From contig DIXA01000058.1 of assembly GCA_002428565.1 (NCBI GenBank), forward strand, positions 51,570 through 115,569: DNA of 64,000 nucleotides, in the 5' to 3' direction. Below the pieces are notes generated by a model, which saw only the letters and a list, made by a program, of their open reading frames with translations, did not search any database and had not been told where the DNA came from. Shown one piece after another: positions 31,948 to 32,748 of this stretch (the first letter of the stretch is position 1; each line of letters opens with the position of its first letter). This stretch comes from Anaerolineales bacterium UBA6092. Its GTDB lineage: Bacteria > Chloroflexota > Anaerolineae > Anaerolineales > UBA4823. Both the position numbers and the translations under genes were made by a program.

Positions 31948-32748
31948 ATGCAAGTCATCGCAATTGCTAACGAAAAAGGTGGCGTAGCCAAAACCACCAC
32001 GGTTATATCTTTGGCAGGGGCGTTGGTGCAGGCTGGGTACGGCGTGCTGGCGATCGACCTGGATGCCCAGGCGAACCTGACCCTGGGCCTGGGCTTACAG
32101 CCAGCCCGGCTGCGCCGCTCGGTGGCAGATGTGCTGCTGAACTCGGCGGCATTGCTGAGCGTGAGCCGAGAAACCAGCGTTTCAGGCTTAGACGTGGTGC
32201 CCGCCAATGCCGACATGGGCCTGGCAGAGCGTTTTCTGCCTGTGCGCCAGAATTATGAGTACATTTTACAGAATGCGCTGCGCGACAGCCCTGGCCTGGC
32301 AGCCTATCATTATGTGCTGCTAGACTGCCCGCCCTCGCTGGGCGCAGTGACCACCAATGCCCTGACGGCAGCCAATCTGGTGATTGCGCCCACCCAGCCG
32401 GAGTATTTCTCGGCTTACGGTTTGCGCAGCCTGATGGCGACCATCCGCCGGGTGCGCAGCCAGAGCAACGCTGCCCTGTCTTATTATGTGCTCATCACGA
32501 TGATGGATCGCCGCAACCGCATCCACCGTACCTTGTGTGAACAATTGCAGGTCACGTTTGGAGAAGGTTTGTTGAAGACGATCATTGAGGTGGATACCAA
32601 GCTGCGTGAGAGCACGGTAGCCGGTATGCCCATCACCCATTATTTCCCCAAGAGCCGCAGTGCCATGCAGTACACTGCCCTTGCCCAGGAGTTGGTGAAT
32701 CATGTCCAAGAGAAAGCCGCGGTCGAAATCAGTTCGCAATCGGATTGA
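31948..32748 (+). CDS. ParA/MinD-family P-loop ATPase (deviant Walker A), no ParB partner
   Basis: MQVIAIANEKGGVAKTTT carries the KGGxxK[ST] deviant Walker A. Also LAIDLDAQANLT and VLLDCPPSLG (Walker B-like). ATG 31948 lies 2 nt after the upstream stop; TTG 31942 is an alternative start. Confidence 0.88.
   Translation: MQVIAIANEKGGVAKTTTVISLAGALVQAGYGVLAIDLDAQANLTLGLGLQPARLRRSVADVLLNSAALLSVSRETSVSGLDVVPANADMGLAERFLPVRQNYEYILQNALRDSPGLAAYHYVLLDCPPSLGAVTTNALTAANLVIAPTQPEYFSAYGLRSLMATIRRVRSQSNAALSYYVLITMMDRRNRIHRTLCEQLQVTFGEGLLKTIIEVDTKLRESTVAGMPITHYFPKSRSAMQYTALAQELVNHVQEKAAVEISSQSD

Follow-up and report, generated by a model that had tools for sequence, protein, structure and literature searches.

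What does a ParA-type ATPase do when its gene is wedged between those of a sensory receptor and a giant histidine kinase, with no ParB at hand? The question is raised by a 64,000-nucleotide (nt) stretch of Anaerolineales bacterium UBA6092 (Chloroflexota; GenBank assembly GCA_002428565.1, contig DIXA01000058.1, positions 51,570 to 115,569 of the forward strand); this whole stretch is referred to as the window, and all coordinates count from its first letter. The open reading frame (ORF) in question lies on the plus strand, from an ATG at 31948 to a TGA at 32746-32748, and encodes a ParA/Soj-type ATPase of 266 amino acids. Its Pfam matches (AAA_31, 1.1e-47; CbiA, 3e-18) and more than 200 close homologues indicate that it is a real gene. 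A first-pass annotation, made from the sequence alone, had placed its start 2 nt 3' of the last receptor gene and its end within the kinase gene, and the coordinates bear this out: the upstream gene (28994-31945) closes with a TGA at 31943-31945, leaving a gap of 2 nt, and the kinase ATG lies at 32702, resulting in an overlap of 47 nt (32702-32748) between the ATPase and the kinase. A GGGAG stands 7 nt 5' of the ParA ATG and an AGGAG (32687-32691) stands 10 nt 5' of the kinase ATG, and the 47-nt overlap suggests translational coupling of ParA and kinase. The reading favored here, with a probability of roughly 0.5, is that nucleoid-bound, ATP-loaded ParA dimers bind a peptide at the N-terminus of the kinase and distribute or partition the assembly of kinase and receptors.

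In sequence and in fold, the ATPase is closest to the chromosomal ParA/Soj proteins (33-39% identity). The best phmmer matches among Protein Data Bank (PDB) sequences were ParA of Myxococcus xanthus (MxParA; 8RAY, 3e-42), Soj of Thermus thermophilus (3e-37), a ParA-like protein of Mycobacterium smegmatis (3e-35), and Soj of Helicobacter pylori (5e-33), whereas MinD (5e-15), McdA (2e-8), and FleN (4e-7) were far weaker and P1 ParA, Vc ParA, and ParF were also far behind. An AlphaFold2 (AF2) model of the protein (predicted local distance difference test, pLDDT, 91.5) matched Soj, ParA, McdA, and MinD in Foldseek with a probability of 1.0. Template-modeling (TM) scores of 0.85-0.90 and root-mean-square deviations of 1.3-1.8 Å were obtained for Soj/ParA of Bacillus subtilis, H. 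pylori, M. xanthus, and T. thermophilus, and scores were lower for McdA (0.80) and for BcsQ, MinD, and FlhG/FleN (about 0.7; BcsQ about 0.71). None of the NCBIfam subfamily models tried (BcsQ, ParA_partition, RepA, MinD) reached its cut-off, the scores in bits being 93.3 against 157.85 for BcsQ (TIGR03371), 86 against 180 for ParA_partition, 46.7 against 212.9 for minD_bact, and 75 against 202 for minD_arch. The elements that bear on the function of the ATPase are as follows.

31969-31998, plus strand: deviant Walker A motif NEKGGVAKTT (residues 8-17), with the signature K10, the catalytic K15, and the clade-invariant A14
32056-32076, plus strand: Motif 2 (Walker A'), with D37, D39, and N43, the equivalents of MxParA D58, D60, and N64 by residue mapping and conservation
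32125-32466, plus strand: remodeled partner-binding surface, ten residues from 60 to 173, mapped onto 8RAY
32314-32334, plus strand: Walker B motif VLLDCPP, with the invariant D126
32512-32514, plus strand: R189, invariant, aligned with the non-specific DNA-binding arginine of Soj/ParA
32599-32601, plus strand: K218, Lys or Arg in the clade (one Gln exception), aligned with MxParA R238

The deviant Walker A motif that the first-pass annotation had reported is thus present at residues 8-17, and its core, K10-G-G-V-A-K15-T-T, is invariant in 142 aligned members. K10, G11, G12, A14, K15, D37, D39, D126, and R189 are invariant throughout the clade described below, and N43 is kept with few exceptions. 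The signature lysine, the Motif 2 and Walker B aspartates, and the ParA fold together place the protein in the ParA/MinD (deviant Walker A, SIMIBI) superfamily. Like chromosomal ParA/Soj, it has intact Walker A, Motif 2, and Walker B elements and no N-terminal helix-turn-helix extension. In ParA, PpfA, and PomZ, non-specific DNA binding has been linked to two positions, those of R195 and R224 in CcParA (PMC7229837), and the R238E variant of MxParA was used as a DNA-binding-deficient probe (PMC12462528). By alignment position, R189 and K218 are the putative equivalents of CcParA R195 and R224; since position 218 is Lys or Arg, with one Gln exception, among more than 200 clade members, the DNA-binding residues of chromosomal ParA/Soj appear to be retained. 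Overall, it is about an even bet that the gene product is a ParA ATPase of the Soj type that remains active but now serves a sensory kinase complex in place of ParB and the chromosome.

These same data bear on the possibility that the protein is instead a membrane assembly or anchoring factor, like BcsQ or FlhG/ParC, that recruits or stabilizes the receptor-kinase complex at a pole or septum without involving the nucleoid. The receptors are membrane proteins, ParC works at the poles (PMC10241942), and BcsQ is the best of the NCBIfam matches, though sub-threshold (93 against 158 bits). However, the ATPase has no MinD-type C-terminal amphipathic membrane-targeting helix; its tail (...HVQEKAAVEISSQSD) is polar and variable and is encoded within the overlap with the kinase start. 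Further, the TM scores to BcsQ, MinD, and FlhG are well under those to Soj, and the putative DNA-binding residues are conserved, R189 without exception and K218 with the single Gln. No bcs genes occur in the context and the hallmarks of BcsQ membership are lacking. A membrane-anchoring role is therefore considered unlikely, although it is not the least probable of the alternatives weighed here.

If the protein is of Soj type, the next question is whether it serves ParB. The first-pass annotation had seen no ParB, MinC, or plasmid functions, and none was found in Pfam scans of window ORFs of at least 200 amino acids, which are nearly all of the plausible genes; ORFs below 200 amino acids, such as would encode a protein the size of MinE, were not scanned systematically. 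A search of the window with the parS consensus returned matches at chance level (2 matches with 3 mismatches, against 0.75 expected), and neither parB nor parS was found in about 40 related loci. The residues by which ParA would recognize ParB tell a similar story. In M. xanthus, ParB docks on ParA through the motif L11-G-R13-G-L15-x-x-L18-I19, the R13 of which touches MxParA Y81, E82, D110, and E117, and the canonical ParB site comprises the invariant Y81 and E117 along with the hydrophobic V116, L150, L152, L155, L187, and L192, in M. xanthus numbering (PMC12462528). A nearly gap-free alignment to 8RAY, in which 10 of 10 reference letters agreed, allowed these positions to be mapped onto the window ATPase: Y81 corresponds to A60, E82 to D61, D110 to D89, V116 to R95, E117 to F96, L150 to L131, L152 to A133, L155 to T136, L187 to R168, and L192 to S173. 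Across the clade (more than 200 members), Ala, Ser, or Gly predominates at position 60 (Tyr in one), Arg, Gln, or Lys at position 95, Phe or Tyr at position 96, and small or polar residues at position 173, whereas MxParA, T. thermophilus Soj, and actinobacterial relatives (about 40% identical) retain Tyr, Val/Ile, Glu/Gln, and Leu at those pocket positions. The canonical ParB pocket is thus absent from both the window ATPase and its clade. Systematic remodeling of this kind would insulate the ATPase against ParB and would be in keeping with a different ligand.

The window ATPase therefore lacks two defining traits of ParABS, an accompanying ParB/parS and the canonical ParB pocket. This bears directly on the explanation that an ordinary chromosomal Soj/ParA merely happens to lie in a sensor operon. 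The closest solved structures are indeed Soj proteins; yet there is no parB or parS nearby, the canonical contacts Y81 and E117 are lost, and, as described next, the protein belongs to a distinct clade (bootstrap 100/100) whose operon context is kept in about 40 loci. An ordinary Soj is accordingly very improbable.

Homologues retrieved with the window ATPase number more than 200, and the few that are named come from Anaerolineales, Anaerolineae, or Chloroflexota metagenome-assembled genomes (MAGs). The comparison covered 21 genome loci (L005-L025, with ParA 43-82% identical), loci from metagenomes (L001-L004, L086-L088), and seven more that were picked because they diverge (L165-L171). One or more Cache/HAMP/GAF receptors, then ParA, then a multi-GAF kinase is the order in all of these Anaerolineae loci and in about 40 loci altogether, down to 43% ParA identity where this was scored, which answers the call of the first-pass annotation for a check of receptor-ParA-kinase order. 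A gene orthologous to the last receptor sits 5' of ParA in most loci, a gene for a threonine synthase (ThrC)-like protein with a REC domain and then an EamA gene lie 3' of the kinase wherever the contig reaches, and a reverse-strand OmpR-type regulator and two GAF kinases often follow further along. The best-conserved genes of the cluster are ParA and ThrC-REC. An overlap between the kinase start and the end of ParA was present in 18 of 19 loci examined (8-119 nt) and in 6 of 7 further loci (23-50 nt), the exceptions resembling frameshifted or mis-called starts. No natural fusion of ParA and kinase was found among 221 ParA homologues.

In a neighbor-joining (NJ) tree of 122 ParA-type sequences, all synteny-positive ParAs and the ParA of locus L085 form one clade with bootstrap support of 100/100, and 88 other ParAs fall outside it. 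A first NJ test of monophyly failed through the single extra member L085, and the support is 100/100 with L085 included. The placement that had been proposed as a check thus gave a Soj-like family that stands apart from chromosomal Soj and has lost the ParB contacts; orthology to chromosomal Soj without conserved synteny, which the first-pass annotation had named as an outcome that would speak against its proposal, was not what emerged. The nearest relatives from cultured organisms are actinobacterial ParAs (Corynebacterium, Isoptericola, and others; 38-45% identity), which lack the sensor-kinase synteny. One such locus was examined in detail (L031:8729-12210): it has the order pyrG-nudix-xerD-parA-scpA-scpB, no adjacent parB, and the canonical pocket residues, and L026-L084 were grouped with it by ParA similarity. 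These orphan ParAs by scpA-scpB differ from the window ATPase in their canonical Tyr/Val/Leu pocket, in the absence of sensor-kinase synteny, and in falling outside the clade. The M. smegmatis structure 4PFS may be of this type.

Several loci depart from the common arrangement or call for care. Locus L089 (2599-12745) is rearranged, with the order REC-REC-transmembrane kinase-ParA-receptor-MASE11/GAF-receptor. In one subclade, represented by L168 (6749-12786) and L169 (6746-12786), the gene after ParA encodes a GAF-rich, motif-bearing protein of about 1000 amino acids with no HisKA or HATPase among the matches listed; a Methyltransf_19 gene comes next and a separate GAF kinase lies further 3' (with HisKA and HATPase among the matches listed for L169). 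The partner of ParA may thus not always be a kinase. In L004, L006, L008, L018, and L172-L174, from long-read metagenome assemblies, the kinase, ParA, or ThrC-REC is broken into several ORFs by apparent frameshifts, and gene-length comparisons from these loci are therefore unreliable. A metagenome scan with an alignment of the divergent clade was dominated by the generic KGGVAKTT pattern, and only 4-5 of 80 loci belonged to the family.

What, then, could have replaced ParB as the ligand of this ATPase? Attention is drawn to the gene that overlaps it, the product of which has the following parts.

32702-40918, plus strand: giant soluble hybrid histidine kinase of 2738 amino acids, with 12 GAF domains, HisKA (residues 2243-2310), HATPase_c (2358-2472), and 2 REC domains by Pfam
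32702-32767, plus strand: N-terminal motif of the kinase, MSKRKPRSKSVRNRIESLFEDL, a basic stretch and then V11-x-x-R14-I15-x-x-L18-F19-x-x-L22, from conservation and the AF2 model
32777-32902, plus strand: disordered linker, kinase residues 26-67 (AF2 pLDDT below 50)
32936-33184, plus strand: first folded element of the kinase, a half-GAF ending ...LALENARLF (AF2 pLDDT 82-97; invariant columns)

A scan of the kinase for transmembrane segments gave no strong candidate. The protein begins MSKRKPRSKSVRNR, and the first-pass annotation had flagged its basic N-terminus; this proves to hold a motif that is conserved and linked to ParA, with a disordered linker behind it. All kinases whose genes follow a ParA of the family open with basic residues and an amphipathic motif (for example, MSKKKLRNRIDSLFEDL, MPKKQKIDKRLDKLFDNL, MSNKRIQKKISKIFADL, and MSDHELKRLLEGLFADL), the conserved form being the basic amphipathic MSKKK..Φ-x-+-x-Φ-x-x-L-F-x-D-L, and 85 N-terminal fragments collected from the kinase side gave the consensus MPKKKPIDKRLKNLFEDVKPEQ. 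Conversely, when motif-bearing kinase fragments were traced back to their loci, 3 of 3 tested lay directly 3' of a ParA gene. The motif has a single match in the six-frame translation of the window, and a profile built from one subclade (A) matched only ORFs that follow ParA in 2.6 million amino acids of six-frame ORFs. In the AF2 model, residues 9-25 form a helix; the linker behind it is rich in Pro, Ala, Glu, and Lys and differs in length and sequence between homologues; and the half-GAF consists of three strands and a long helix (E79-107, H116-161). The N-terminus of the kinase thus has, in form, the attributes of a cargo-borne peptide, with residues 1-22 basic and amphipathic, a predicted helix at 9-25, and predicted disorder at 26-67.

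The motif resembles that of ParB in its hydrophobic register (i, i+4, i+7, i+8) and in a Lys or Arg between the first two of these positions (PMC12462528), the corresponding residues in the window being V11, R12/R14, I15, L18, and F19. It also varies together with the pocket. A subgroup of ParAs (bootstrap 86) that carries W168 along with Phe, Tyr, or His (rarely Ala or Arg) at position 173 pairs only with Phe-less motifs of the form RL[ED]AL-Q/N, and all members without W168 pair with motifs of the form ...LF.D[LIV]; such pairing is what compensatory change at a contact could produce. Taken together, the linkage and the form of the motif make it probable, though well short of certain, that the N-terminus of the kinase is the partner of ParA.

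It could be argued that the helix has another job in the kinase, as a membrane anchor or in dimerization, and that ParA finds its partner elsewhere, in the receptor tails or in an unlinked protein. The helix is amphipathic and flanked by Lys and Arg, like some membrane-targeting sequences, and the C-terminal module and acidic tail that the receptors share could be a docking site. Against this, the motif is found only on the gene directly after ParA, and in L089 that gene encodes a transmembrane receptor, which bears the motif (MESFKQSLEELFSDF) and a Pro-rich linker although it already has transmembrane helices; there, the motif tracks ParA rather than one cargo protein and is not needed as a membrane anchor. 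Additionally, the motif co-varies with pocket positions 168 and 173, and its hydrophobic register is that of the ParB peptide (PMC12462528). A different job for the helix is thus improbable, more so than membrane anchoring by the ATPase.

How might a peptide on a kinase and an ATPase without ParB work together? In the mechanism proposed here, ATP-bound ParA dimers would sit on nucleoid DNA by non-specific binding, and the giant multi-GAF kinase would be made from the same mRNA as ParA via translational coupling. Histidine kinases are expected to be homodimers. A kinase dimer would therefore present two N-terminal basic amphipathic peptides on long disordered linkers, and the two tethered peptides would meet the two symmetric sites of a ParA dimer. 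Two peptides on two sites is the arrangement that is most effective for ParB (PMC12462528). Binding of the peptides would stimulate ATP hydrolysis by ParA, and the resulting cycle of tethering and release would spread the kinase and its receptors along the cell and share the assembly between daughter cells. The output-less Cache/HAMP/GAF receptors would presumably signal through the kinase. The comparisons establish the gene anatomy, the fold, the intact catalytic and DNA-binding residues, the clade, the synteny and overlap, and the conservation and exclusive ParA linkage of the motif; from them we infer the binding of the peptide by ParA, the activation of the ATPase, the nucleoid as the matrix, and the positioning or partitioning outcome. 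The suggestion of the first-pass annotation that the ATPase may organize or partition a receptor-kinase assembly gains support from these in silico checks. It had also pointed to a filamentous host, which is plausible for the Anaerolineae, although the sequence itself does not demonstrate filaments.

The same linkage evidence (synteny, overlap, and motif) would accommodate a regulatory switch that positions nothing, in which ParA-ATP either holds the kinase sequestered, perhaps at the nucleoid, or controls it allosterically and so links signaling to the state of ATP or of the nucleoid. ParA/MinD proteins are documented as regulators: FleN controls FleQ and Soj controls DnaA. FleN-FleQ structures are, moreover, among the fold matches of the window ATPase. 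What distinguishes the kinase is that its basic N-terminal peptide is tethered by a long, disordered linker, a hallmark of cargo adaptors (PMC7993993, PMC10241942) that is absent from the known cases of regulation, and a mechanism based on a matrix is in line with the conservation of the DNA-binding residues. A purely regulatory role is possible but doubtful, and it is the strongest of the rivals to positioning of the kinase by nucleoid-bound ParA.

Several observations weigh against positioning of the kinase by nucleoid-bound ParA. First, the evidence for the mechanism is entirely comparative, the interaction of peptide and ParA being a candidate, and all hosts of homologous clusters are uncultured MAGs. 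Second, the receptors are in the membrane, and a kinase tethered to the nucleoid would have to bridge to them. Third, R95, T136, R168, and S173 are polar or charged where hydrophobic residues of MxParA hold the ParB peptide, and the binding mode may therefore differ. Fourth, the kinase motif resembles ParB in pattern but not through homology, since the motif profile, when compared with PDB sequences, returned only chance-level matches (E at least 0.12) and retrieved no ParB N-termini. Fifth, the co-variation of pocket and motif amounts to essentially one evolutionary event, that which gave rise to the W168 clade. Sixth, L085 (1982-2986) encodes a ParA of the same clade, with an insertion of about 45 amino acids before Walker B, that has no adjoining kinase; it is the sole clade member without the synteny, on a short contig of noisy quality, and an ORF of unassigned function lies next to it on the minus strand. 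Finally, the sequencing runs that contain the window are of DNA only (a hydrocarbon metagenome), with no RNA runs to speak for co-transcription.

Comparison with known systems helps to place the proposal. The partners of ParA/MinD ATPases that have been cited as examples include ParB, MinE, ParG, PomX, TlpT, and McdB (PMC7993993, PMC10241942). With ParABS, the window system shares an N-terminal position of the likely partner peptide and the hydrophobic register of the ParB motif; it differs in that the ATPase has no adjacent ParB or parS, forms its own clade, lies in a sensor-kinase operon, and has its putative peptide fused to a histidine kinase. PpfA-TlpT of Rhodobacter sphaeroides and ParC-ParP of Vibrio are closer in setting, each with a ParA-like ATPase inside a sensory cluster and a receptor/kinase assembly as the cargo, which in the window is the presumed cargo. 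TlpT has a basic N-terminal extension (PMC7993993) and PpfA uses the nucleoid (PMC10241942). By analogy, the window ATPase would work most like these two systems, from which gene content sets it apart: it is accompanied by no MCP, CheA, CheW, or ParP, its receptors are Cache/HAMP/GAF proteins, its kinase is a HisKA hybrid kinase, and the peptide is on the kinase itself. Because the window holds no MCP, CheA, or CheW, the analogy to ParC and PpfA is one of function and not of membership. McdA-McdB and PomZ-PomX likewise combine an orphan ParA and a non-DNA cargo with an adaptor that carries a short, charged N-terminal activating peptide and then a disordered Ala/Pro-rich region. Their similarity to the window ATPase is much weaker (McdA, E 2e-8, 17-19% identity), their cargos are different, and adaptor and cargo would be one polypeptide in the window. 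No paper was found in the literature on a ParA linked to a GAF/HisKA kinase.

If the kinase is the cargo, what does it sense and what does it control? The genes around the ATPase and kinase, all on the plus strand, are listed below.

About 2908-3294 and 3287-3751, plus strand: pair of single-domain REC genes that opens the cluster, from their translations
3774-29076, plus strand: nine further GAF sensor genes, starting at 3774, 5988, 7685, 10665, 13015, 16013, 20457, 23990, and 26269 (Pfam, NCBIfam)
28994-31945, plus strand: last receptor, multi-transmembrane/dCache_1/HAMP/GAF without an output domain (Pfam, transmembrane scan)
40922-42640, plus strand: threonine-synthase-like pyridoxal phosphate (PLP) enzyme with a REC domain (Pfam PALP and Response_reg), kept downstream of the kinase across loci
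42640-43581, plus strand: EamA-family transporter (Pfam), in conserved synteny

The first-pass annotation had drawn its comparison with chemotaxis clusters. One correction is needed here, in that the flanking genes do not encode chemoreceptors and CheA: the neighbors are dCache/HAMP/GAF proteins without MCPsignal and a hybrid kinase of the form 12xGAF-HisKA-HATPase_c-2xREC. A chemotaxis cluster was ruled out, as no MCPsignal, CheA, or CheW domain occurs in the scanned genes of the window, and no MCPsignal, CheA, CheW, or ParP domain was found in the window or in related loci. The ten receptor-like proteins (3774-31945) are zinc-ribbon/GAF proteins, MASE11/GAF proteins, or proteins with one or more transmembrane segments and dCache/HAMP/GAF domains, and Pfam found neither MCPsignal nor an enzymatic output domain in any of them. 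Each of the ten carries the same C-terminal module, ...ALENARL-RAERER-...ILQTA..EL...L..V.I.L, with an acidic tail behind it. The module comprises an S-helix, RAERER, and a first helix and strand like those of a GAF, and the kinase, after its linker, opens with no more of a GAF than its last strands and helix. The C-terminal piece of the receptors and the N-terminal half-GAF of the kinase could form a split GAF, by which a single kinase would be coupled to many receptors. The receptor genes number 10, and the kinase has 12 GAF domains.

Embedded within the receptor array are genes for an NMT1/THI5-type periplasmic binding protein (9615-10631), a Peripla_BP_6 binding protein (22727-23917), and an Nramp-family metal transporter (18859-20433), which may be ligand-delivery partners of the neighboring Cache receptors. 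A pair of REC genes similar to that at the head of the cluster occurs 5' in other loci, most clearly in L089, with REC-like matches 5' in L022, L023, and L025. On the output side, the ThrC-like protein has a zinc-ribbon-like N-terminal segment and a C-terminal REC domain, and all NCBIfam ThrC models score below their cut-offs on it; it is likely the output of the system. The ThrC-REC and EamA pair suggests the phosphorylation-controlled making and export of an amino-acid-derived compound. Directly after the cluster (43616-48154) lies a gene for a protein of 1512 amino acids with a double zinc ribbon, an adenylate/guanylate cyclase domain, AAA_16, and TPR repeats, which is not found at the corresponding position in L001-L004. 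Further along (53845-61335) is a gene for a secreted-type protein of 2496 amino acids with an S8 subtilase domain, five CarboxypepD_reg repeats, DUF4394, and PKD domains; long antisense ORFs over this gene have no Pfam matches and are probably spurious.

Chromosomes, plasmids, the divisome, carboxysomes, flagella, chemotaxis arrays, conjugation machines, and cellulose synthase are the known cargos of ParA/MinD ATPases. If the reading favored here is true, an ordinary (non-Che) two-component histidine kinase with a built-in ATPase-activating peptide would be a new class of cargo, and the clade would show how a Soj-type ParA can be insulated from ParB through the remodeling of one pocket. More tentatively, and with less expectation than the partnership of ParA and kinase alone, the Anaerolineae may possess an array-like "GAF signalosome" of a kind not described before, in which about ten output-less receptors feed into one giant kinase whose own peptide mimics that of ParB, the assembly is spaced and partitioned on the nucleoid by its dedicated ParA along multicellular filaments, and a phosphorylation-controlled ThrC-like PLP enzyme and an EamA exporter yield as output a regulated, secreted compound derived from an amino acid; this would be a non-chemotaxis counterpart of the MCP/CheA arrays that are positioned by ParC and PpfA. 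The conserved sensory operon of about 40 kb, with its receptor-kinase coupling and its PLP-enzyme/exporter output, is itself brought to attention. A peptide of 25 residues and an ATPase of 266 amino acids would provide a handle for asking how large sensory complexes are organized in the abundant, uncultured filamentous Chloroflexota of digesters, sediments, and hydrocarbon sites.

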